Source: an uncultured Candidatus Saccharibacteria bacterium
Lineage (GTDB): Bacteria; Patescibacteriota; Minisyncoccia; Phycocordibacterales; UBA2100
Assembly: GCA_964589005.1 (NCBI GenBank)
Contig: CAZPQI010000001.1
Span: forward strand, 67,675 to 131,674
Direction of reading: 5' to 3'
Length of the DNA stretch: 64,000 nt
The notes below the pieces were generated by a model that saw only the letters and a list, made by a program, of their open reading frames with translations, had not been told where the DNA came from and made no database searches. A program made the position numbers and the translations under genes. Positions 6,864 through 63,022 of the stretch are shown piece by piece. Within the stretch, counting starts at the first letter, position 1. Every line of letters starts with the position of its first letter.

Positions 6864-6889
6864 AAGTGTATCGGTTAACCGATACACTT
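6864..6889. repeat. 26-bp perfect palindrome aagtgtatcggttaaccgatacactt (copy 1 of 2)
   Basis: Read directly from the sequence. An identical 26-mer occurs at 48616-48641. Confidence 0.85.
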
Positions 6890-6894
6890 CTCTT

Positions 6895-6944
6895 AAATAT
6901 TAAATACCCATTTTAATATATATTAAAATGGGTATTTAATATTT
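6895..6944. repeat. 50-bp perfect AT-rich palindrome
   Basis: aaatattaaatacccattttaatatatattaaaatgggtatttaatattt. Every position was checked base by base against its reverse complement. It lies in the 550-bp frr-holB intergenic region. Confidence 0.85.
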
Positions 6945-7341
6945 GAGTAAAAGAATAAAGAAAATTTGAGTGTCAGGAAACTTAAAAACAAAAAAGTGGT
7001 GTCGAAACACCACTTTTTAAGATTTTAACCAAAGTGCCGAATATTAAGTACGAAGCAAATATTTTTCGGCTTTTCGAGTCATTAAATTCAGCTTTTGTGC
7101 TGGTATTAGTGCAGCGTTTTCCTTATCCGCACGAAACACAAAGTAACGTAAACGCCACGGCCATGTCCTTGCGAGATATGGAAACTTTTTTGCCAACCAC
7201 CCCTTCGGTTTTTCCCATTGCAGATACAACTTCCTCTCATTCGAAATTGTCGAAATGCGTCTGTGTGTAGATTCGCTCATTTAATTAATCCCTCTTCGTA
7301 AGTTTCTGCTAATAAAACTATACCATTCCAAGTCAAGATAG

Positions 7342-7995
7342 TCAATTCTTTGGTACAACTAATGCAACACTTTCCATAAGTGTTTTAAGTGATGCTCCTT
7401 TGTCTTGTAAAACTTTTCGTACATCAATAATATGCTGCAGTGCAAGTGCGGTAATTTCCGTGTTCTTAGTATTCTTCGTACTATATAATTCTGCTTCAAT
7501 ATTTTTCAAAAGTTCCCCTGCCTCTGATACACTTTTTTCTTTAAGTATTGGCTCCAGTAGTTCTAACCGAGCGCCTGCAGATGCATGTAAAAATTCTTTT
7601 CCAGAAGTGCTTTCTTTTGTCGCCGTAGTCGAGTTTACCACCCAAACGCGAGAACGAAGCGTCGGTAATACATTTTGTATGCCTGTGAGACAGATAAAAA
7701 AGTGTGTTCGCTCTGGTGGCTCTTCAAAAAGTTTCAAGAGTGCATTTTGTGCCTCTCGCGTGCACGACTGCGCTCGATATATAAATAACTGCGTTCCTAG
7801 TGAACGCATACCCGCCATATGAATAAGTGCACGACTGTCATCAATCCCCAACGTTTCAAATTCGCGAACATGCACCTCAGCATCTTTGTGAGAACCTTTC
7901 AGTAATTCCTGCAAACCAATAAAAATCCCCTCGTCATCCTCAAGTAAATACGCATGGTGTAGATTTTTTGTGTCAATAGTTTTGAGAGATTCCAT
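7342..7995 (-). CDS. holB: DNA polymerase III delta-prime subunit (short form)
   Basis: Motifs HAYLLEDD, AQNALLKLFEEPP and LPTLRSR. The usual N-terminal P-loop region is absent or shortened. Confidence 0.8.
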   Translation of the reverse strand: MESLKTIDTKNLHHAYLLEDDEGIFIGLQELLKGSHKDAEVHVREFETLGIDDSRALIHMAGMRSLGTQLFIYRAQSCTREAQNALLKLFEEPPERTHFFICLTGIQNVLPTLRSRVWVVNSTTATKESTSGKEFLHASAGARLELLEPILKEKSVSEAGELLKNIEAELYSTKNTKNTEITALALQHIIDVRKVLQDKGASLKTLMESVALVVPKN

Positions 7996-8084
7996 TGTGT
8001 AAGTATACCGCTGTATACAAACTTACAAAAATAACAATTACGTGTTATACATTGACTAGAAAACACACAACTGGAGGAAAGAAT

Positions 8085-8630
8085 ATGCTTACAACATTTC
8101 GCACTGTCGATATATGGATTCTTGAAAAAGTTGTGGAGCCTTTTTCGTGGACCATTGAATCATTTACCAACTTTAGCAATTTTAGACAAGCACGAGTGAC
8201 ACTTCTGGCATTTTTTGTTTCCTCTTATGGATTGAATACCTCAGGTAGTAGCTTGAGTGTAGTGGAATTGATATCAATGGTTTTTGCTGTTGTTTTATTA
8301 TATTTCCATTCAAAATGGCTGGAAAAAACAAGAAACAGTGGCACACTTAGTATTGCTCGCACAGCGTGGTATCACGTTCATGGGCGATTAATGGGCTGGG
8401 CTCTTGTATTTGTACTTTTGCTCCTAACTATTGCCATGCTAGAACGTAGTGACGAAACTGGCTATCGGAAAGTAGAATTTTTGAGATCCGAATCTGATTT
8501 ATGGTTTAATCTGTTTCTACTGTATGTATACCCATTGTCGGCGCTTTTGTATAGTTATTTTTTAGCATGCAGTTCTATGCCAGCAAAATATGAGCGACAC
8601 TTATCGTCAAAAGAAGTGTATTCTTCTTAA
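8085..8630 (+). CDS. hypothetical membrane protein
   Basis: ATG preceded by GGAGGA at a 6-nt spacing. Several hydrophobic helices. A weak hairpin plus T-run follows the stop. Confidence 0.5.
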   Translation: MLTTFRTVDIWILEKVVEPFSWTIESFTNFSNFRQARVTLLAFFVSSYGLNTSGSSLSVVELISMVFAVVLLYFHSKWLEKTRNSGTLSIARTAWYHVHGRLMGWALVFVLLLLTIAMLERSDETGYRKVEFLRSESDLWFNLFLLYVYPLSALLYSYFLACSSMPAKYERHLSSKEVYSS

Positions 8631-8880
8631 AGACGCTCGACCAAAAGACCCTGCAGAAATGTGGGGTTCTTTTTTTATGTAATTTTTTTAAAATTGATAC
8701 GTACAGGTGAAGTTATCTTGCGAATACCGTGCTAGGAACACGAGTAAAATTTAGGTCATAGCGACTTTTATTTTTGGATGTAGTGCAAGGCGCAGGAGAA
8801 AAACAAAAGAGACGTATTAACAATACGGCGAGTGAAGTTTTTTGAACTGTAACGCAGTAATGCGCCAAAAATAAAAGCCT

Positions 8881-9897
8881 CTACCTCTTGGAGATGATTG
8901 CCTTTTTATAGACGTCTAAATGTTGTAGTGCTATTCCCGTCCCCTTCGCCACACTATACAGTGCATCATCGGCAAGAACTGCTTTCACTCCAGTACGCCG
9001 ATACACCAACTCTGGCAAGTTACGCAACTGCGACGATCCTCCCGACATGGTAATTCCGTTGTCGATAATGTCTGCCGCCAACTCTGGCGGTGTCTCCTGT
9101 AAAACGTCCCTAATAGCCTTTACAATTTCGCGTAGTTCCCGACCAATAGCTTTTACTATTTCATTTGTACTCATCTCAACCGAACGTGGCAACCCTGTTA
9201 AATAATCCCTACCTTTAACTGTCATTGTTAGCTCTTCTTCCATTGGCAAGGCTGAACCAATTTGGGTTTTTACATCTTCTGCCGTTTTGTCTCCTATAGC
9301 TAGATTAAATGTTTTTTTGATATGCGCGGCGATAGCTTCGTCGATGCGATTACCCGCACACTTTACTGAAGTAGAAGCAACAATTCCACCAAGTGAAATC
9401 ACCGCGACATCAGTGGTTCCTCCACCAATGTCAACAATCATATTTCCTTGAGCCTCATGAATAGGGATACCTGCGCCAATTGCGGCCAAGATCGGCTCTT
9501 TTACCACTTGTGCTGTTTTAGCTCCAGCTTTTACTGCTGCTTCAATAACCGCTCGGCGCTCGGCAGATGTAACTCCAGCTGGAACTGAAATCATCACATC
9601 AGGGCGAAAAAAGCTCCACCAGCTTGTTGCCTTGCGCATATAGTAGCGAAGCATTGCTTCAGTTACTCTATAATCTGCAATGACTCCGTCTTTCATAGGT
9701 CGATACGCAATAATGTCATCAGGGGTTCTTCCAACCATTTCTTTCGCTTCATCCCCCACTGCTAGAATTTTATTTTCCTGTTCAGACACCGCCACGACTG
9801 AAGGCTCCCTAAGCACAACGCCTTTCCCAGGAACATAAATAAGAGTATAGGTCGTTCCTAAATCTATTCCCAATTTTGGTGTTAGTGAAAATTCCAT
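8881..9897 (-). CDS. second MreB/Mbl-like actin homolog
   Basis: 338 aa with GIDLGTTYT, DIGGGTTD and VAKGTG motifs. A paralog of the mreB at 2389-3477. Confidence 0.85.
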   Translation of the reverse strand: MEFSLTPKLGIDLGTTYTLIYVPGKGVVLREPSVVAVSEQENKILAVGDEAKEMVGRTPDDIIAYRPMKDGVIADYRVTEAMLRYYMRKATSWWSFFRPDVMISVPAGVTSAERRAVIEAAVKAGAKTAQVVKEPILAAIGAGIPIHEAQGNMIVDIGGGTTDVAVISLGGIVASTSVKCAGNRIDEAIAAHIKKTFNLAIGDKTAEDVKTQIGSALPMEEELTMTVKGRDYLTGLPRSVEMSTNEIVKAIGRELREIVKAIRDVLQETPPELAADIIDNGITMSGGSSQLRNLPELVYRRTGVKAVLADDALYSVAKGTGIALQHLDVYKKAIISKR

Positions 9898-10789: not shown

Positions 10790-12313
10790 TTAAATATCAC
10801 TCACTATTTCTATCTGTGCCCCAATATCTGCGAGGCGCTCGGCAATACGCTCGTACCCTCTTTCAATTGAATATACGTTTCGCAATAAAGAAGTTCCCTC
10901 TGCTGCAAGCATGGCAATAAGCACCACCACCGCAGGACGAAGAGCAGGTGGACACACTACCTGTGCAGCTCTAAGTTCTGTTGGTCCTGTTACAAATACG
11001 CGATGTGGATCGGCAAGTTTTACATCCGCTCCCAAACGATTAAGCTCAGTAAAATAAATAGCTCTTCCTTCCCAAGCCCAATCGTGGATTAGAGTAGTGC
11101 CCTTTGCTTGTGTCGCAATAGGAACAAAGAACGGTAAGTTATCAATGTTAAGCCCTGGATACGGTAGCGGATGTATTTTTATGGGAGACGCTTTCAACTC
11201 CGATGGATATATCGTAAGGTCTACAAGTTTCGTTTTTCCGTTTTTGGAAAAATACACTTTACCTTGTTCATACTTTAATCCCATGTATGTAAGCTTAAGT
11301 AACTCGACTTCAAGAAACTCAATGGGGCACCTTTTTATTTGCAGTTCAGACTTCGTTACTGCTGCGGCACTTATAAACATCATCGACTCTATCGGGTCTT
11401 CGCTATTGTAGTGTGTAATTTTTTTGTCTATTTCGTCTACCCCATACACGGTTAGAGTCGTTGTTCCTACCCCATCAATACGTACGCCAAATTGCCGCAA
11501 CAAAAAACAAACGTCTTGTACTTGGTAATTAGGTGGAGCGTACTTTATTACTGTTTTTCCAGGAATCAGCGCCGCTGTCATCAGTGCGTTAATCGCAGCA
11601 GTGTCACTCGCCTCATACATAACAATTTCTGTAGGCTTCAATTTTTTTACTTTAAATGAATAGTGATTTTCGTGGGTTCCTACACGAACACCAAGAGATT
11701 CAAGGGCGTGCTTGTGTGCAGCTATTGTTCTATCACCCATATTACATCCACCAGCGTGTGGAAGCGTAAAATCGCCTTTACGATGCACCATTGCGGGAAT
11801 AAGCATAAGTACCGATCGCATTTTGCTTGCAGCACTTTTGTCTATACTGGAAAGTTTAAAACTTTTCGGGGGGGTGATATGTAATGTGCACTCGTTAAGA
11901 GCATCAACTTGCACGCCAATGCTTTTAAATACCTCAATCAGTCTATGAATTTCTTCTATGCGTGGAATTCCATGTAGCACTGTCGGAGCCTTGTTTAAAA
12001 GAGACGCACACATCAAAGCAAGCGCGCCGTTTTTGGAAGTGTTAGTAACTGCTGTTCCATGTAACTTTTTTCCACCGGTAACTTTAAAGTCTAAACCTTC
12101 TTTTAAACCAACAACTTGATGTTGTAATACATCGCTTATTTTCAATAGTTGTGTTGTAGAAAGGTTCTGGTCACCCTTTTCCATGCGCGCAACTGCCGAC
12201 TGCGAAGTTTGCATTGCTTGTGCAAACGCTTTCTGAGTTAACCCGCGCTTACGACGAAGATCTTTGATAAAAAGTCCAATTTTACGATGTGATTCTGAAG
12301 ACATGGGGTTCAA
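10790..12313 (-). CDS. murA: UDP-N-acetylglucosamine 1-carboxyvinyltransferase with an N-terminal XRE-family HTH domain (fusion)
   Basis: Residues 1-65 form an HTH_XRE domain (LRRKRGLTQKAFAQAMQTSQSAVARMEKG). From about residue 70 the sequence is MurA-like (KVTGGKKLHGTAV...NGALALMCASLL), including the active-site Cys loop HAGGCNMGDR. It is a single uninterrupted ORF. Confidence 0.8.
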   Translation of the reverse strand: MNPMSSESHRKIGLFIKDLRRKRGLTQKAFAQAMQTSQSAVARMEKGDQNLSTTQLLKISDVLQHQVVGLKEGLDFKVTGGKKLHGTAVTNTSKNGALALMCASLLNKAPTVLHGIPRIEEIHRLIEVFKSIGVQVDALNECTLHITPPKSFKLSSIDKSAASKMRSVLMLIPAMVHRKGDFTLPHAGGCNMGDRTIAAHKHALESLGVRVGTHENHYSFKVKKLKPTEIVMYEASDTAAINALMTAALIPGKTVIKYAPPNYQVQDVCFLLRQFGVRIDGVGTTTLTVYGVDEIDKKITHYNSEDPIESMMFISAAAVTKSELQIKRCPIEFLEVELLKLTYMGLKYEQGKVYFSKNGKTKLVDLTIYPSELKASPIKIHPLPYPGLNIDNLPFFVPIATQAKGTTLIHDWAWEGRAIYFTELNRLGADVKLADPHRVFVTGPTELRAAQVVCPPALRPAVVVLIAMLAAEGTSLLRNVYSIERGYERIAERLADIGAQIEIVSDI

Positions 12314-12335
12314 GGGTAATTTCTAATGTAAATAT

Positions 12336-12359
12336 GTTATATCATATATGATATAACAC
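12336..12359. promoter_or_regulatory. 24-bp perfect palindrome tgttatatcatatatgatataaca in the divergent murA/priA promoter region
   Basis: Read from the sequence. It lies 23 bp upstream of the HTH-murA start on the opposite strand. Proposed as an operator candidate. Confidence 0.5.
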
Positions 12360-12366
12360 AAGCACC

Positions 12367-14316
12367 ATGACACCTATGGTATGCTGTGCGCATTGGAGAT
12401 TACCGTCTCCAAAACTCTGTATGTTTATCATCCACGTTACACCAGTTGCCAAAGGAGGCATACATCAACTCTCCTACTTTTCGTCCCAAGAGTTTCCTGT
12501 GGGCACTATTATTCAAGTTCCCTTACGTAAGAAAGAAATCCCCGCATTGGTGCTAGAGCGCGAAGACGCGCGCGCAGTTAAATCAATTTTGCGCACAAAC
12601 GTATACGAAACTCGAAAAGTACGAAAACAAGAAGCCGTGCATATATTTTCTCCTGAGTTTGTAAGAGCAGCACAAACTACTGCGGCGTACTTTGCAACAT
12701 CTGTTGGAAGTATCATTCACAGTTATGTTCCTGCTGCTATTTTAGCTGCTCCGAGTGGAAAAAATTCGCCACAACAAATACCTGGAAAAGATTCCGTACC
12801 ATTTGAAAGATGTGTGCTTCAAGTTCCCCGCCACGCTCGCGTCGAAAAATATAAAGTGCTTATTCGAAACCGATTCGCAAAAGGGGAGTCGGTATTGCTG
12901 TGTGTGTCCACTCTTCGAGAAGCTCGGTTCTTTTACGAGCAATACAGTCGCGGTATTGAAAAATATTCGTTTTTGCTTGAAAGTTCGCAAACTAAGAAGG
13001 TTCAACAAGAAACATGGAATGCGGCTCTTTTGGAAAAACACCCTGTACTGATAGTTGCTACTCCTACGTTTATAAGTATCCCCCGTGGTGATATTTCGCT
13101 TTTTATTTTGGAACACGAGATGTCGTCGGCATATAAACAACAAACGCGACCGCGCGCAGATGCTCGTATAGTAATAGAAAACGTCGCTCGCGAAACTAAC
13201 AGCACCCTACTATACGCCGGAACTACTGTGAGTGTGCGAGTACACAAGTTGCTGCACGATGGTAGTGCACACGAACTCGACGAACAGGTACGCAAGTTAC
13301 GCACCGAAAATACCGTTACCATAGTCGATAGTAAAAAATCTCGTCGCAGCGCACGAGAGGAAAAATTAGATTTCCCCGTGCTCTCTGTACAGTCGCTCTC
13401 TGAGTTGTACGAATGCCAAAAAAAAGGGAGGCTCTCTTTCGTATTCACTGCGCGGCGAGGCATAGCATCACAAACAACGTGCAATGATTGCGACACGACA
13501 ATAAAGTGCGTGCACTGCGAGTCGCCAATGGTACTACACGAAAGCCGCGGGCAGCGCGAATTACTTTGTCATCGTTGTGGAAGCATGCGCGATGCAAACG
13601 AAACGTGTGTCTTGTGCGGTAGTTGGAACTTAGTACCACTTGGTATTGGATCAGAACGAATCGAGCAATTTTTAAAAAAACATCTTCCCGATTCCAAGCT
13701 CTTTGTACTTACCCGCGATACTGCCTCGACACCGACGAAAGCAAAAAAGATAATCGAAGAGTTTTATGCAACCCCTGGAGCAATTCTCATCGGTACAGAA
13801 ATGGCACTCCCGTACCTCACCATTGAAGTTTCGTGCAGTATTATGAGCTCAATAGATTCCTTATTGTGTATTGCCGACTTCCAAATTGAAGAGCGAATTT
13901 TTTCAATCATTGCAATGTTGCGCGAACGAACCAGTACCATTTTACTTATTGAAACTGGATCCCCAGAAAACCCAATGCTCAAACATGCTCAAAATGGTGC
14001 ATTAGCTGAGTACGCAGAAGAAGAACTAAAACTACGCGAACAGCTGCGCTACCCTCCGTATGCTCATATTATAAAAATAACGTATACGGGAACAAAAGAA
14101 GCTGCCATACAAAATATGCAAAAATTTGTGGAATGTACGTACGCAAAATACAAACCACGCGTTTTTTCTGGCTTCATACAAAAAGGTCGCGACGTGCAAC
14201 TCCACGCACTTATACGAATACCAGTGGAGAATTGGCCAGATACAGAACTCGCTGCAATTTTAGAAAATTTACCACTTTCTTTTACTGTTGATGTAAATCC
14301 TGAACGAACTCTTTAA
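12367..14316 (+). CDS. priA: primosomal protein N' (PriA) homolog with degenerate ATPase motifs
   Basis: N-terminal 3'-DNA-binding-like region and a Cys4 zinc-binding insertion (CNDCD...CVHCES...CHRCGS...CVLCGS). Helicase-core colinearity (LLESS..ETW, LIVATPTF) is kept. Where Walker A (GxTGSGKTEVY) should be, the sequence reads QVPRHARVEKY. Where DEEH should be, it reads LEHE. The real start may be at the Met 18 codons downstream. Confidence 0.8.
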   Translation: MTPMVCCAHWRLPSPKLCMFIIHVTPVAKGGIHQLSYFSSQEFPVGTIIQVPLRKKEIPALVLEREDARAVKSILRTNVYETRKVRKQEAVHIFSPEFVRAAQTTAAYFATSVGSIIHSYVPAAILAAPSGKNSPQQIPGKDSVPFERCVLQVPRHARVEKYKVLIRNRFAKGESVLLCVSTLREARFFYEQYSRGIEKYSFLLESSQTKKVQQETWNAALLEKHPVLIVATPTFISIPRGDISLFILEHEMSSAYKQQTRPRADARIVIENVARETNSTLLYAGTTVSVRVHKLLHDGSAHELDEQVRKLRTENTVTIVDSKKSRRSAREEKLDFPVLSVQSLSELYECQKKGRLSFVFTARRGIASQTTCNDCDTTIKCVHCESPMVLHESRGQRELLCHRCGSMRDANETCVLCGSWNLVPLGIGSERIEQFLKKHLPDSKLFVLTRDTASTPTKAKKIIEEFYATPGAILIGTEMALPYLTIEVSCSIMSSIDSLLCIADFQIEERIFSIIAMLRERTSTILLIETGSPENPMLKHAQNGALAEYAEEELKLREQLRYPPYAHIIKITYTGTKEAAIQNMQKFVECTYAKYKPRVFSGFIQKGRDVQLHALIRIPVENWPDTELAAILENLPLSFTVDVNPERTL

Positions 14317-16654: not shown

Positions 16655-16774
16655 TACTTTCTATTATATCACGTTGAAAAAACACTTTTCTCGTGTAGAA
16701 TACGGCTCAGTTCTTTCCAAAGTTATATAGATTTTTTCGCTCCGCGGTAGCTCAGTGGTAGAGCAATCGACTGT

Positions 16775-17026
16775 CGAAGGCAGCCTTTGGTAGTAATATC
16801 AAAGTGAAGAACGAGGTGAATTGACTGGAAACCCTAACGTAAAGGCGAGGGCAATCAGCAGCCAAGCTTAATTGAAGGTTCAGAGACTATTCCGAAAGGA
16901 AGTACTATCCATTGTAATTATTTTGCAACTGGACGGGAAGCGCCTCGCATCCTAATCCGATCACGTCAGTGATTTAGGATGGATGATGATATAGTCCACC
17001 CCTTTTGGAAACAATTGGAAAAGGTG
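16775..17026 (+). mobile_element. putative group I intron (approx 252 nt) in the tRNA-Asn anticodon loop
   Basis: The 5' exon ends in U and the intron ends in G. An internal guide GCAG can pair with exon CUGU to form P1. GGAAACCCUAACG, CCAAGCUU and AGAGACUA match elements I recall from small bacterial tRNA group I introns of the Azoarcus tRNA-Ile / cyanobacterial tRNA-Leu type. A GACGGG...AUAGUCC P7-like pairing is present. The size fits that class. Confidence 0.6.
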
Positions 17027-17102: not shown

Positions 17103-17435
17103 ATGTCTACCACTAAGAAACGAAAAGAAAAACGTACGTACGCCGATCGTCGTGAGTACATGATAAAGGCAGTCGCTAAACGACGCAGAAAGTTACGAAC
17201 TATGGCTTTAGAGCATGGAGGTGGTAAGTGTACGATTTGTGGGTATAAGAAATGCACTAGAGCGCTCACTTTTCATCACCTGGATCCATCTAAGAAAAAG
17301 TTCGGATTATCTGCCAGAGGGATAACTCGCTCATGGGAAAAAACTAAAGCAGAGTTAGAAAAATGTGTTTTGCTATGTATGAACTGCCACATGGAAATAC
17401 ATGATGGAGTTACTAAAGTTCCAAAGAAAAGGTAA
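17103..17435 (+). CDS. HNH endonuclease
   Basis: 110 aa with CxxC...HHLDP...N...CxxCH, a His-Me finger. Lies immediately 3' of the intron-containing tRNA, bracketed by duplicated tRNA 3'-end sequence. Confidence 0.8.
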   Translation: MSTTKKRKEKRTYADRREYMIKAVAKRRRKLRTMALEHGGGKCTICGYKKCTRALTFHHLDPSKKKFGLSARGITRSWEKTKAELEKCVLLCMNCHMEIHDGVTKVPKKR

Positions 17436-17777: not shown

Positions 17778-18173
17778 CTATAAAATTTCTTTGTATTCTA
17801 TATAGTTAGTTTGAATCATTTTCTTCCACCAGACAGTCTCGTTATTACCTCTAATGTCATTCTTACAATAAACTAACAATATTTTAACTTCTTTTTTTGT
17901 TTTGTATTGAGCAACAATACATCTATTCCCAGAGGCTTTTGCGGATTCACTTGGTAAAATTTTAAATTCGCACTTATAGATGACAATGTCACTATCCAAA
18001 TCAGAAATAGAACTAGTTACACTCCGATCAATCATTAAATCAAACTTTCTAAGCATCAGAATAAAAGCTGACCACGGAGTGTTAAAAGAACTTTTATATT
18101 TTTTGCGCAAACTCTTTAAGTATAATTTTTCAGCAACACTTTCTGTAGAGACATCGTAATAATTAGTAGACAT
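17778..18173 (-). CDS. hypothetical 131-aa protein, candidate toxin partner of the Panacea-domain protein
   Basis: Overlaps the upstream HTH-Panacea gene by 11 nt, so translational coupling is likely. A weak RelE/ParE-like C-terminal pattern (NRCIVAQYKTKKEVKILLVYCKND). No confident family assignment. Confidence 0.4.
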   Translation of the reverse strand: MSTNYYDVSTESVAEKLYLKSLRKKYKSSFNTPWSAFILMLRKFDLMIDRSVTSSISDLDSDIVIYKCEFKILPSESAKASGNRCIVAQYKTKKEVKILLVYCKNDIRGNNETVWWKKMIQTNYIEYKEIL

Positions 18174-18858
18174 GCTCTGGGTCTTCTTGGGTTATAAGTT
18201 CGTACGGAATAATTGACCCTTTATCGGCAAAAATATATGGTATCTGCTCATGAGTAAACCTTACAATATCCTGCGTATTTGATTTTTTCCAATTATCCCA
18301 GACGTCGTGCATAAGTTTCTCCTCTGCTTTAGAAATAGAGTTTAAAGAATTTTTTTCTGAACCTCGAGTTTCAGAAAAAGAATATGTATCTTTTCCTTCG
18401 TCACTTTTGTGACTTACCACGATACTTCCGTCATCTTCTAATTCTTGAATTGCACGAAAATACGCATCCGGAACTGGGCCGAATTCAATTTTACGATATG
18501 GCATTCCACTTATGCTCTCTTGATGCTTGTAGTACCAAGCGAAGTCAGCAAGATACAAAAGTTTAGCTAGTTTAGTTTTCTTCAATACCTGCCCACTTTT
18601 TTTTGCATCGCGTAAATACGATAGAATCATCTGCTTATACTTTTCATAGTTAGGTGCTTGATTAGATAGAAGCTCTTGAATAGAGATACCAAACATGTCA
18701 GATAGCTTTTGTGCCTCCAGTAAACTAAGTTCTTTTACACCTTTTTCTAAAGAAACGTAAGATGGTCTAGAGATGCCAATCCTCTCAGCAACTTCACCTT
18801 GCGAAAACTTACGGTCTAAACGAAGACTCTTTATAAATTTAAAATAAGTATTACTCAT
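18163..18858 (-). CDS. XRE-HTH + Panacea (DUF4065/SocA-like) domain protein, putative PanA antitoxin/regulator
   Basis: N-terminal HTH (SQGEVAERIGISRPSYVSLEKG). The C-terminal region carries KLAKLLYLADF...GMPY...FGPVPDAY, the conserved core of DUF4065. Confidence 0.65.
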   Translation of the reverse strand: MSNTYFKFIKSLRLDRKFSQGEVAERIGISRPSYVSLEKGVKELSLLEAQKLSDMFGISIQELLSNQAPNYEKYKQMILSYLRDAKKSGQVLKKTKLAKLLYLADFAWYYKHQESISGMPYRKIEFGPVPDAYFRAIQELEDDGSIVVSHKSDEGKDTYSFSETRGSEKNSLNSISKAEEKLMHDVWDNWKKSNTQDIVRFTHEQIPYIFADKGSIIPYELITQEDPEHVY

Positions 18859-24333: not shown

Positions 24334-24383
24334 AATGAAGAATCTTAGACTCAAAGTGCTATACTAAACGAACAATTGAATAA

Positions 24384-24526
24384 ATTATCAAGAAAGATGT
24401 GAAGGGACTAGCCTTATGACCATCTTAGCAACCTGTCTCTTCGTCCAGATAAGGTGCTCCATCTAGCCTGTATAGGAAAGATAACAATGCATCAGCATCT
24501 TACCCTTCACAGGAAAGATGTTTTTT
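24384..24526 (+). promoter_or_regulatory. SAM-I (S-box) riboswitch with terminator in the metK leader
   Basis: UUAUCAAGAAAGAUGUGAAGGGACUAGCC...GCAACC...AGAUAAGGUGCUCC...AUCUAGCC...GGAAAGAUAA matches the SAM-I consensus blocks (YUCUUAUCAAGAG..GGAGGGACUGGCC...GCAACC...AAGGUGCUAA..CCAGC..GAUAAGA). It is followed by the hairpin catctt...aagatg plus TTTTTT just before the metK start. Confidence 0.8.
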
Positions 24527-34849: not shown

Positions 34850-34976
34850 TGTAAAATATTTTTTCTATTAGTACGTTTTCAGTGTCGACGCGATTAGTGC
34901 ACACAAACTGCAGGCAAATCTATTTCGAAAACCATAATAAGCCTATCACGTATGATATACTCTCGCATACAAAATT

Positions 34977-35714
34977 ATGGATAGAGAAAAACCCGCACTC
35001 GAGATAAAAAATTTACACAAAGCGTACGGCAAAACAGTTGCTGTGGACGATATTTCTCTTACACTACCGCGTGGTGCTTTTTTAGGGCTCTTGGGACCAA
35101 ACGGTGCAGGTAAATCGACTCTTATAAACTGCATTGTAGGAGTAAACAAAATAACAAGTGGTACGATTAGCACTTTTGGGTTCGATGTCGAAAAAGACTA
35201 CCGTGAATCGCGCAGAACAATTGGCATCGCCCCACAAGAATTTAATGTGGATTTTTTCGCAAAAGTTTGGAAAGTCCTCGACTATGTAGGCGGGTACTAC
35301 GGTATGCGAAAAGAAGAGAGGGCACAACGTATCGAAGAACTCCTTGACCAATTTCAACTTCAGAAACATCGCGATAAATCGTTTAACGAACTATCGGGTG
35401 GATTAAAGCGACGTGTTGTGCTCGCTCGTGCACTCATACACGACCCTGAGCTCATCATTCTAGACGAGCCAACAGCAGGGATTGATGTTGAGCTCCGCCG
35501 TGAATTATGGGGACACTTACAAGAACTTTCAAAACGAGGAAAAACCATACTCCTTACATCTCACTACCTCGACGAAGTAGAGTTGCTCGCAGACCGTTTT
35601 GCTTTTATTAGCGACGGAAAAATAGTTGCACAAGGATCAAAAGAGAAAATGCTCACAGGAGGTAAAGACTTAGAAGATTTATATCTTGAATTAACTAGTA
35701 ATAACAACGTATGA
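34977..35714 (+). CDS. ABC transporter ATP-binding protein
   Basis: Motifs GPNGAGKST, LSGGLKRR and ILDEPTAGID. Confidence 0.9.
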   Translation: MDREKPALEIKNLHKAYGKTVAVDDISLTLPRGAFLGLLGPNGAGKSTLINCIVGVNKITSGTISTFGFDVEKDYRESRRTIGIAPQEFNVDFFAKVWKVLDYVGGYYGMRKEERAQRIEELLDQFQLQKHRDKSFNELSGGLKRRVVLARALIHDPELIILDEPTAGIDVELRRELWGHLQELSKRGKTILLTSHYLDEVELLADRFAFISDGKIVAQGSKEKMLTGGKDLEDLYLELTSNNNV

Positions 35715-48615: not shown

Positions 48616-48641
48616 AAGTGTATCGGTTAACCGATACACTT
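48616..48641. repeat. 26-bp perfect palindrome aagtgtatcggttaaccgatacactt (copy 2 of 2), flanked by a 7-bp direct repeat actagat
   Basis: Identical to 6864-6889. actagat lies at 48607-48613 and at 48646-48652. Confidence 0.85.
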
Positions 48642-59396: not shown

Positions 59397-59588
59397 AAAA
59401 ACACATGTCGTTGTGTCTGGGTGAATGTTTTTATTCTAAAAACCCAAAACAGACAGTTAACTGTCTGTTTATTCAAAATGCCCTAGGAGCCTCCTAGGGC
59501 ATTTTGATTCCTCCCAATCTTCAACCTGCCTGCCGGCAAGGCAGGTAATTATACGTTTACATTTTTCGTCGATGGTGGATTGGAGTTT
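59397..59588. repeat. R-family intergenic repeat copy 1 (about 192 bp) with three hairpins H1-H3
   Basis: Near-identical to 62099-62292. H1 is aaacagacagttaactgtctgttt at 59447-59470. H2 is aaaatgccctaggagcctcctagggcatttt at 59475-59505, a terminator-like hairpin flanked by an A-run and a T-run. H3 is a GC-rich hairpin at 59524-59546. The repeat abuts the pepE stop. Confidence 0.85.
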
Positions 59589-62098: not shown

Positions 62099-62292
62099 AA
62101 AAACACATGTCGTTGTGTCTGGGTGAATGTTTTTATTCTAAAAACCCAAAACAGACAGTTAACTGTCTGTTTATTCAAAATGCCCTAGGAGCCTCCTAGG
62201 GCATTTTGATTCCTCCCAATCTTCAACCTGCCTGCGCAGGCAGGTAATTATACGTTTACGTTTTTCGTCGATGGTGAGTTGAGGGTATTTTG
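62099..62292. repeat. R-family intergenic repeat copy 2
   Basis: Identical to copy 1 through H1 and H2. H3 is a perfect 20-bp palindrome acctgcctgcgcaggcaggt here. Abuts the doc stop. Confidence 0.85.
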
Positions 62293-62925: not shown

Positions 62926-63022
62926 TTCAAAATGCCCTAGGAGCCTCCTAGGGCATTTTGACATCTTTCAATCTTCAATAATTATACGTGTACGTTTTTC
63001 GTCGATGGTGAGCTGGGGTTTT
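62926..63022. repeat. R-family repeat copy 3 (partial: H2 plus the 3' tail, H3 deleted)
   Basis: Carries aaaatgccctaggagcctcctagggcatttt and ...attatacgtgtacgtttttcgtcgatggtgag. Confidence 0.8.

Follow-up and report, generated by a model that had tools for sequence, protein, structure and literature searches.

A MurA enzyme with an N-terminal helix-turn-helix domain and a conserved palindromic site: a predicted trigger enzyme of peptidoglycan synthesis in Patescibacteria

MurA is the committed step of cell wall synthesis and the target of fosfomycin. We describe a MurA that appears to carry its own repressor domain together with a defined operator, encoded in a 64,000-nt stretch of DNA from an uncultured Candidatus Saccharibacteria bacterium (GenBank assembly GCA_964589005.1, contig CAZPQI010000001.1, positions 67,675 to 131,674 of the forward strand; hereafter the window). 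The protein, here called HTH-MurA, joins an XRE-type helix-turn-helix (HTH) to a UDP-N-acetylglucosamine (UDP-GlcNAc) 1-carboxyvinyltransferase, and we consider it probable (roughly 0.78) that it is a bifunctional enzyme and repressor (a "trigger enzyme") for peptidoglycan genes, in the manner of BirA and PutA. That HTH-MurA binds the palindrome in front of its gene and regulates itself has strong comparative support. As predicted from the sequence, enzyme and DNA-binding domain share one chain, with a putative operator at the gene itself and at genes of its pathway, which is the arrangement of a trigger enzyme. Coordinates of the features are collected in Table 1.

An earlier note on this DNA, written from the letters alone, had proposed that about 65 extra N-terminal residues with an XRE HTH stand in frame with an intact MurA, catalytic Cys loop included. 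Pfam, NCBIfam and alignments bear this out. The N-terminus, 65 to 70 residues longer than that of canonical MurA, matched the HTH_3 model above its gathering score (44.8 bits; cut-off, 23), EPSP_synthase (PF00275) matched residues 76 to 491 (E 5.6e-46, model positions 2 to 417 of 417), and the NCBIfam MurA model PRK09369 scored 325.5 bits, above its cut-off of 297. The alignments show the Cys loop PHAGGC(187)NMGDR, and no in-frame stop occurs in the HTH/MurA linker of the window or of any orthologue aligned. The open reading frame (ORF) list offers an alternative TTG start at 12313, three codons 5' of the ATG; it is the less likely start on the alignment, because orthologue starts coincide with the ATG. 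In the AlphaFold model (a monomer; mean pLDDT, 86.9), a four-helix HTH (helices 2-19, 24-30, 35-43 and 50-60; block-mean pLDDT about 74 to 88 over residues 11 to 60) and a MurA fold are joined by a low-confidence linker. Foldseek placed the MurA part on 1uae with a target-normalised TM-score of 0.92, and matches to MurAs in the PDB reached E 2e-52. The closest solved HTHs were the designed binder DBP48 (8tac, top match), the controller proteins C.BclI and C.AhdI, and HipB/Xre antitoxins. A 100% identical protein (P0001) is present in public data, in a JGI metagenome.

The fusion is widely conserved. Relatives were found in 571 species (scan of one genome per species); in 79 of the best 80 of these 571 genomes, the match began no later than query residue 10, the single exception being cut by a contig end. 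Apart from obvious bin mislabels, these 80 genomes are all Patescibacteria, with the lineage names Paceibacterota, Kaiser-, Zambryski-, Uhr-, Jorgensen-, Yanofsky- and Nomurabacteria. Of the protein clusters built at 90% identity, the best 120 are 61 to 100% identical to HTH-MurA and mostly 501 to 514 aa long; PF01381 and PF00275 occur together in all of them except the truncated fragment P0080. The note had named two findings that would refute the fusion, and neither was made: the N-terminus matches an HTH model, and relatives do not carry separate HTH and murA genes, the architecture of about 504 aa staying fused in these clusters and genomes. A frameshift or assembly artefact is ruled out by the fused clusters, the species genomes and the orthologue alignment. 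Two close unfused MurAs (P0122 and P0123; 53 to 55% identity to HTH-MurA) were inspected for a split arrangement, which was rejected, as neither a separate HTH gene nor the operator was found 5' of either.

The MurA half looks functional, judged by the main catalytic residues retained. Comparison with solved MurAs and 30 orthologues showed that the catalytic and substrate residues K91, N92, R163, C187, R192, D388, R456 and R482 are kept (in E. coli, in the same order, K22, N23, R91, C115, R120, D305, R371 and R397), with C187 invariant in orthologue alignment A1. Canonical MurA (E. coli, E. cloacae) has the same fold and the same catalytic Lys, Cys, Asp and Arg residues; HTH-MurA differs from it by the N-terminal extension and by the lack of an acid at the D369 position, and its structural-alignment identity to solved MurAs is only about 26 to 28%. 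Orthologues adjoin murB and Mur-ligase (MurC/MurD-type) genes in relatives, with the Mur ligases downstream, and murB is the divergent neighbour in 29 of 80 related loci. In the window, murA is flanked by priA and a hypothetical gene, and no murB, murC or second murA was found in its 64 kb.

The earlier note had further described a 24-bp perfect palindrome 23 bp upstream of murA, between murA and a divergent priA. The palindrome is indeed perfect and priA indeed divergent (ORF open from 12367, homology from 12421); the end coordinate had been set one base too far, and the distance is 30 nt to the ATG or 21 nt to the TTG. A search for the palindrome elsewhere, which that note had proposed, returned a single full site in the 64-kb window; the sequence is unique there even with three mismatches allowed, and none of 100 shuffles contained it. 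The best other match, CCTATCACGTATGATATA at 34942..34959 (four mismatches, without the invariant T1 and A2), is a weak operator-like site 17 nt 5' of an ABC-transporter ATPase ORF (34977..35714) and probably a mere extended -10 promoter. About 25 further perfect palindromes whose arms measure 10 bases or more occur in the window, and most have the look of terminators, so a perfect palindrome alone is not informative here; the significance comes from conservation across genomes. An RNA hairpin or riboswitch reading of the palindrome was rejected because sequence, not pairing, is conserved (54 one-sided operator changes against 7 complementary two-sided ones, mostly at the central pair), and Rfam gave no match at its position.

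The conserved part is an 18-bp core, TATATCATATATGATATA, which was present with at most two mismatches upstream of the fused gene in 72 of the 78 related loci with sequence upstream of that gene. Its distance from the start is at most about 400 nt (mostly less than 100 nt, usually 0 to 60 nt; in some cases it overlaps the start codon), and a cognate palindromic operator is thus predicted near the HTH-MurA gene. The consensus is TATATCA-YATR-TGATATA, in which the four central bases vary, positions 2, 3, 6, 12, 13, 16 and 17 are invariant, and conservation stops sharply outside the 18 bp. The operator is present whatever the upstream neighbour (besides divergent murB, this is a divergent priA in 7 loci and a co-directional DUF3048 gene in 6). 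Because a co-directional upstream gene leaves the conservation of the murA-distal half-site unchanged (0.26 mismatches per half-site in 23 loci, against 0.21 in 43 divergent loci), the symmetry is not a by-product of back-to-back promoters. The murB start codon is very often exactly 8 nt from the operator edge, or inside the operator (e.g., L117, L128, L161, L176 and L177); a distance of 8 nt would be compatible with leaderless transcripts initiated at the TGnTATA element of the operator itself.

Other near-matches in 581 kb (the loci plus the window) are almost all directly 5' of a murC-type ligase, in eight loci. There, the variant site TATCTCATATATGGTATA stands a few bases upstream of the divergent ligase gene, which suggests a small mur regulon in Zambryskibacteria-like genomes. 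The variant was seen in L073 (923..940) and in L019, L036, L044, L058, L063, L069 and L077, 1 to 2 kb from murA, between the divergent murC-type ligase and a small gene downstream, whose Shine-Dalgarno sequence is strong.

Recognition helix and site go together. Among the 30 orthologues (61 to 86% identity), T33, S34, S36 and E42 of the predicted recognition helix are invariant and Q35, A37, V38, A39 and R40 nearly so, and 55 of 78 loci have the helix TSQSAVAR[MI]E. The only lineage lacking the site (L008, L009, L012 and L014) has drifted helices in three versions (TSTSTVARME, TSVSVVNKME and SSISE[VI]TKIE), and in L008 murA overlaps the preceding gene, its own promoter region being lost; the four losses are probably a single event. 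Locus L069 combines a symmetric operator change in both half-sites (TATAGCA..TGCTATA) with a changed helix. The absence of the operator where the helix has drifted or the HTH is missing gives strong comparative support to a predicted pairing of the two.

The same site recurs in toxin-antitoxin operons. Metagenome contigs, scanned without bias for exact copies of the 18-mer, gave at least 125 sites in at least 120 loci. Full-length HTH-MurA was found in at least 15 of these loci, with at least 3 more truncated at contig ends, and in at least 16 a Gp49/HigB-type toxin gene started at or within the site, the first toxin codons ATG-ATA-TAx (Met-Ile-Tyr) being its right half. Among the matches listed, a small XRE antitoxin with the helix T[TK]QSN[IV]AR.E.G.QN stood next to the toxin in 14 of 16 toxin loci, and an ORF with the helix pattern lay within 1.2 kb of 28 of 125 sites, against none in 457 kb farther off on the same contigs. 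That two unrelated gene contexts share helix type and site is the strongest argument that the helix reads the operator, a specificity predicted because the two recur together in these operons. The antitoxins come close to HTH-MurA in the helix (T[STK]QS.[VI]AR.E.G.QN), and the operon start bears an identical 18-bp palindrome; they are free-standing, about 100 aa long, and their genes follow that of the toxin, whereas in HTH-MurA the HTH is joined to a 430-aa enzyme. The comparison suggests that the MurA HTH and its operator were borrowed from a Gp49/HigB-type module. The best NCBIfam HTH match was a Y4mF/HipB-type antitoxin model (TIGR03070, E 9.8e-11), whose score of 41.5 is below the cut-off of 71.65. 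No Gp49-like gene flanks murA in the window, and by that measure HTH-MurA is not a type II antitoxin; its likeness to that family is confined to helix and operator. In L102, L124, L148, L149, L163, L166 and L185, toxin genes begun by the right half of the operator are followed by an XRE antitoxin with a near-identical helix. A wider regulon was sought among the remaining metagenome sites listed and rejected, as the neighbours were unrelated (e.g., aldehyde dehydrogenase, GntR regulator, eukaryote-like repeats) and nothing coherent emerged.

Among 50%-identity representatives, eight further clusters of full-length fusions were found, the most distant at 32% identity. The GGC/Cys loop is lost in six of the eight (P0129, P0131, P0136, P0141, P0144 and P0237), some of which also lack Lys or Arg residues, and all six keep the helix TSQSA[VI].R[IM]E. 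Four of the Cys-less clusters were examined for the operator (P0129, P0131, P0144 and P0237), and three keep it at their own start, in P0237 at a distance of 5 nt; none was found at P0144, on a short contig. Genes of P0129 (L201) and P0131 (L202 to L204) diverge from an operon in which a standalone murA (438 aa, Cys loop intact) is accompanied by murB or a Mur ligase, and the operator lies in the 25- to 60-nt gap between them; in L202 it takes up the spacer from a TTGACA -35 to a -10 element. These paralogues look like dedicated regulators descended from the enzyme. Since they retain HTH and operator without the Cys, the MurA fold would have a non-catalytic regulatory role, e.g., in sensing or dimerisation.

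We propose the following mechanism. The C-terminal 430 residues would be a working MurA, carrying out the first committed step of peptidoglycan synthesis, and the N-terminal XRE HTH would bind the consensus site as a dimer, with half-site centres 11 bp apart. Bound in or next to its own promoter or start region, the protein would occlude RNA polymerase, giving negative autoregulation. The divergent neighbour would be repressed too (priA in the window, murB in many relatives), as may murC in one subgroup through the variant site. The MurA body would probably also be a sensor, in that UDP-GlcNAc or UDP-MurNAc (UDP-N-acetylmuramic acid) may change how two molecules sit on the DNA, and mur transcription would thereby be tied to precursor supply. 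UDP-MurNAc is known as a feedback ligand of MurA and is a recurrent tight one: structures with it bound, a "dormant" form of MurA that exists in many species, come from several species (3su9, 3swd, 3swe, 3swg, 8d84 and 6q03), and five UDP-MurNAc-bound MurA structures also hold a phosphoenolpyruvate-Cys adduct. Ligand control through the MurA body is plausible because MurA has been solved with UDP-MurNAc from several species.

It is unlikely that HTH-MurA binds the palindrome but activates, or that it switches between activation and repression like the controller proteins of restriction-modification systems. Controller proteins activate at low and repress at high concentration, and two of them, C.BclI and C.AhdI, are among the closest natural solved HTHs; the window site, 30 nt 5' of the ATG with no clear -10/-35 pair found, would also allow it. 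A single site is present, however, not the tandem OL/OR of controller proteins, and most sites are 0 to 40 nt from the start codon or overlap it, or, in L202, sit between -35 and -10, positions at which binding normally occludes RNA polymerase.

Less credence still goes to the idea that the palindrome is no more than a strong promoter, possibly a bidirectional one, formed by two extended -10 elements set back to back, with the MurA HTH unrelated to it. Each half with its flank does read TGATATAnT on its own strand, 45 of the 72 sites having T at position 20, and the upstream gene, divergent in 43 loci, often starts exactly 8 nt from the site, as for leaderless transcripts. A promoter would nevertheless not call for a left half as conserved in the 23 loci with a co-directional upstream gene, and the full 18-mer occurs at no other promoters in the 581 kb except that of murC. 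Loss of the site coincides exactly with a missing HTH or a drifted helix, the toxin-antitoxin site overlaps the start codon and not the -10 position, and a recognition helix would not stay invariant without a target.

We regard as very improbable that the HTH is a RodZ-like protein-protein module that tethers MurA to MreB filaments and binds no DNA. The cytoplasmic domain of RodZ is an XRE-type HTH that binds MreB, and mreB (8881..9897) is 1 kb from murA in the window and near murA in several relatives too. The candidate was rejected because HTH_25 (PF13413) is not among the seven Pfam HTH families matched at E <= 0.01, because MurA follows the HTH directly with no transmembrane segment between, and because the co-conserved and co-lost palindrome, shared with antitoxin HTHs, would be left unexplained. 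That misassembly or a frameshift error produced the fusion, or that it is a functionless, decaying remnant of an antitoxin gene, can be dismissed as negligible, since only its rarity in textbook bacteria speaks for this, against the same ORF of about 504 aa in hundreds of independent assemblies from different projects and helix residues invariant at 61 to 86% overall identity.

Several points weigh against HTH-MurA as a bifunctional enzyme-repressor. On the enzyme side, the acidic residue of E. coli D369 is absent, the family having an invariant PPALRP there, and the strict equivalog TIGR01072 was failed (311.9; cut-off, 392.7), a score by which HTH-MurA is assigned to a divergent MurA clade. 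The sign of regulation is inferred, as are DNA binding and dimerisation; MurA is usually regarded as monomeric, which leaves the pairing of two HTHs on a palindrome unexplained. The right half of the operator with its flank reads TGnTATAnT, an extended -10, so its conservation could partly be the promoter's. On the murA strand of the window, TGATATAAC resembles an extended -10 element by eye; the extended -10-like element here ends in C (TATAAC), and a scan of 12150..12550 found no canonical sigma-70 promoter. With one full site and no other mur gene in the 64 kb, a regulon is not demonstrable for this genome. The Fisher test of helix against operator (p = 5e-5) overstates independence, because the loss loci share one lineage. 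Finally, about 80 of the 125 exact metagenome sites listed have no such HTH gene nearby, and several are in AT-rich, low-complexity DNA; these remaining sites are taken as background.

A broader proposal, to which we give less than even odds, is that, across a large share of the Patescibacteria, the cytoplasmic steps of peptidoglycan synthesis have MurA itself as their master transcription factor. Its fold would sense UDP-sugar precursors and gate an antitoxin-derived HTH on the 18-bp operator at murA, murB and murC, and duplicates would repeatedly have become dead, dedicated repressors of a separate murA operon.

BirA (biotin protein ligase and repressor of the bio operon), PutA and NadR are DNA-binding trigger enzymes that tie transcription to enzyme flux. 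HTH-MurA resembles them in its palindromic operator at promoters of its own pathway, often between divergent genes as at bioA/bioBFCD. It differs from BirA (winged helix) and PutA (ribbon-helix-helix) in using an XRE HTH, and from all three in being an enolpyruvyl transferase of the peptidoglycan pathway whose lineage also has catalytically dead paralogues with HTH and operator. PRK08154 (XRE HTH plus shikimate-kinase-like domain, "anaerobic benzoate catabolism transcriptional regulator") likewise has an HTH N-terminal to an enzyme-derived domain, and the HTH of HTH-MurA matches it weakly (E 2.4e-07); PRK08154 has another enzyme domain and is annotated as a regulator only, which places it nearer the Cys-less paralogues than the window protein.

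Known controls of MurA comprise ClpCP/ReoM/PrkA proteolysis (Firmicutes), CwlM (mycobacteria), UDP-MurNAc feedback and CodY acting on murA transcription. To our knowledge, every one of them uses a separate regulator or a small molecule; they act on the same committed step, whereas in HTH-MurA the DNA-binding part sits in MurA. No published description of an HTH-MurA fusion was found in full-text searches of the literature, which covered the operator string as well. The passages that keywords retrieve from a 2026 review of peptidoglycan regulation (PMC13204101) name only separate murA regulators, and by keyword that text yields no mention of helix-turn-helix, Patescibacteria or autoregulation.

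If the proposed mechanism is true, HTH-MurA would be a very compact regulatory circuit in the tiny genomes of Patescibacteria, which have few transcription factors. We know of no cultured representatives of Patescibacteria in which regulation has been worked out; the sharply defined, conserved operator and helix make the idea testable in vitro without culturing the organism. The dead-enzyme paralogues and the toxin-antitoxin link illustrate a route from metabolic enzyme to transcription factor, and there would be a full evolutionary series from enzyme through trigger enzyme to pseudoenzyme regulator in an essential, antibiotic-targeted pathway.

Table 1. Features of the HTH-MurA locus in the window and Cys-less paralogues in other loci
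Feature	Coordinates	Strand	Basis or remark
HTH-MurA coding sequence	10790..12304	minus	ATG start, 504 aa, stop codon included; ORF list and Pfam/NCBIfam matches
MurA (UDP-GlcNAc 1-carboxyvinyltransferase) domain, residues 73-501	10802..12088	minus	PRK09369 and structure matches
Cys187 codon (equivalent to the catalytic, fosfomycin-targeted Cys115 of E. coli MurA)	11744..11746	minus	GGC aligned with solved MurAs
Short HTH-to-MurA linker, residues 62-72	12089..12121	minus	low-confidence model segment 66-69
XRE/Cro-C1 type HTH domain, residues 13-61	12122..12268	minus	PF01381 (HTH_3), E 1.3e-11
Predicted recognition helix TSQSAVARME, residues 33-42	12179..12208	minus	conservation across orthologues
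Divergent murA/priA intergenic region with putative operator	12305..12420	none	priA homology from 12421
24-bp perfect palindrome, TGTTATATCATA followed by TATGATATAACA	12335..12358	none	symmetry check
Conserved 18-bp putative operator core, TATATCATATATGATATA	12338..12355	none	conservation across loci
Putative operator sequence, duplex form, TGTTATATCATATATGATATAACA			
priA	12421..14316	plus	ORF open from 12367; tblastn with PriA cluster representative, 36% identity over 642 residues
Cys-less paralogue, L201	3481..5003		helix and operator kept
Cys-less paralogue, L202 (also L203, L204)	7972..9503		helix and operator kept
Cys-less paralogue, L206	1452..2952		helix and operator kept

Other palindromes of the window are found at 6864..7018, 48616..48641, 59447..59507, 62149..62209 and 62927..62961, many of them resembling bidirectional terminators (A-run, GC stem, T-run). 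Recurring ones are AAGTGTATCGGTTAACCGATACACTT (twice), AAACAGACAGTTAACTGTCTGTTT (twice) and TCAAAATGCCCTAGGAGCCTCCTAGGGCATTTTGA (three times), and 6895..6944 is a perfect palindrome of 50 bp, rich in AT.

Neither an rRNA nor a tRNA gene was detected anywhere in the window. A second XRE-HTH protein (231 aa, minus strand, 18163..18858, in the region 17778..18858) has a long C-terminal domain; its ORF overlaps one of 131 aa, the two looking like a toxin-antitoxin pair, and the helix of HTH-MurA does not resemble its own (ISRPSYVSLEKG). Rfam places a group I intron (RF00028, 77.9 bits) at 16725..17018 on the plus strand; the ORF after it (17103..17435, 110 aa) carries an HNH-like Cys/His motif. 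A SAM riboswitch (RF00162, 49.7 bits, above the gathering score) lies at 24382..24487 on the plus strand.

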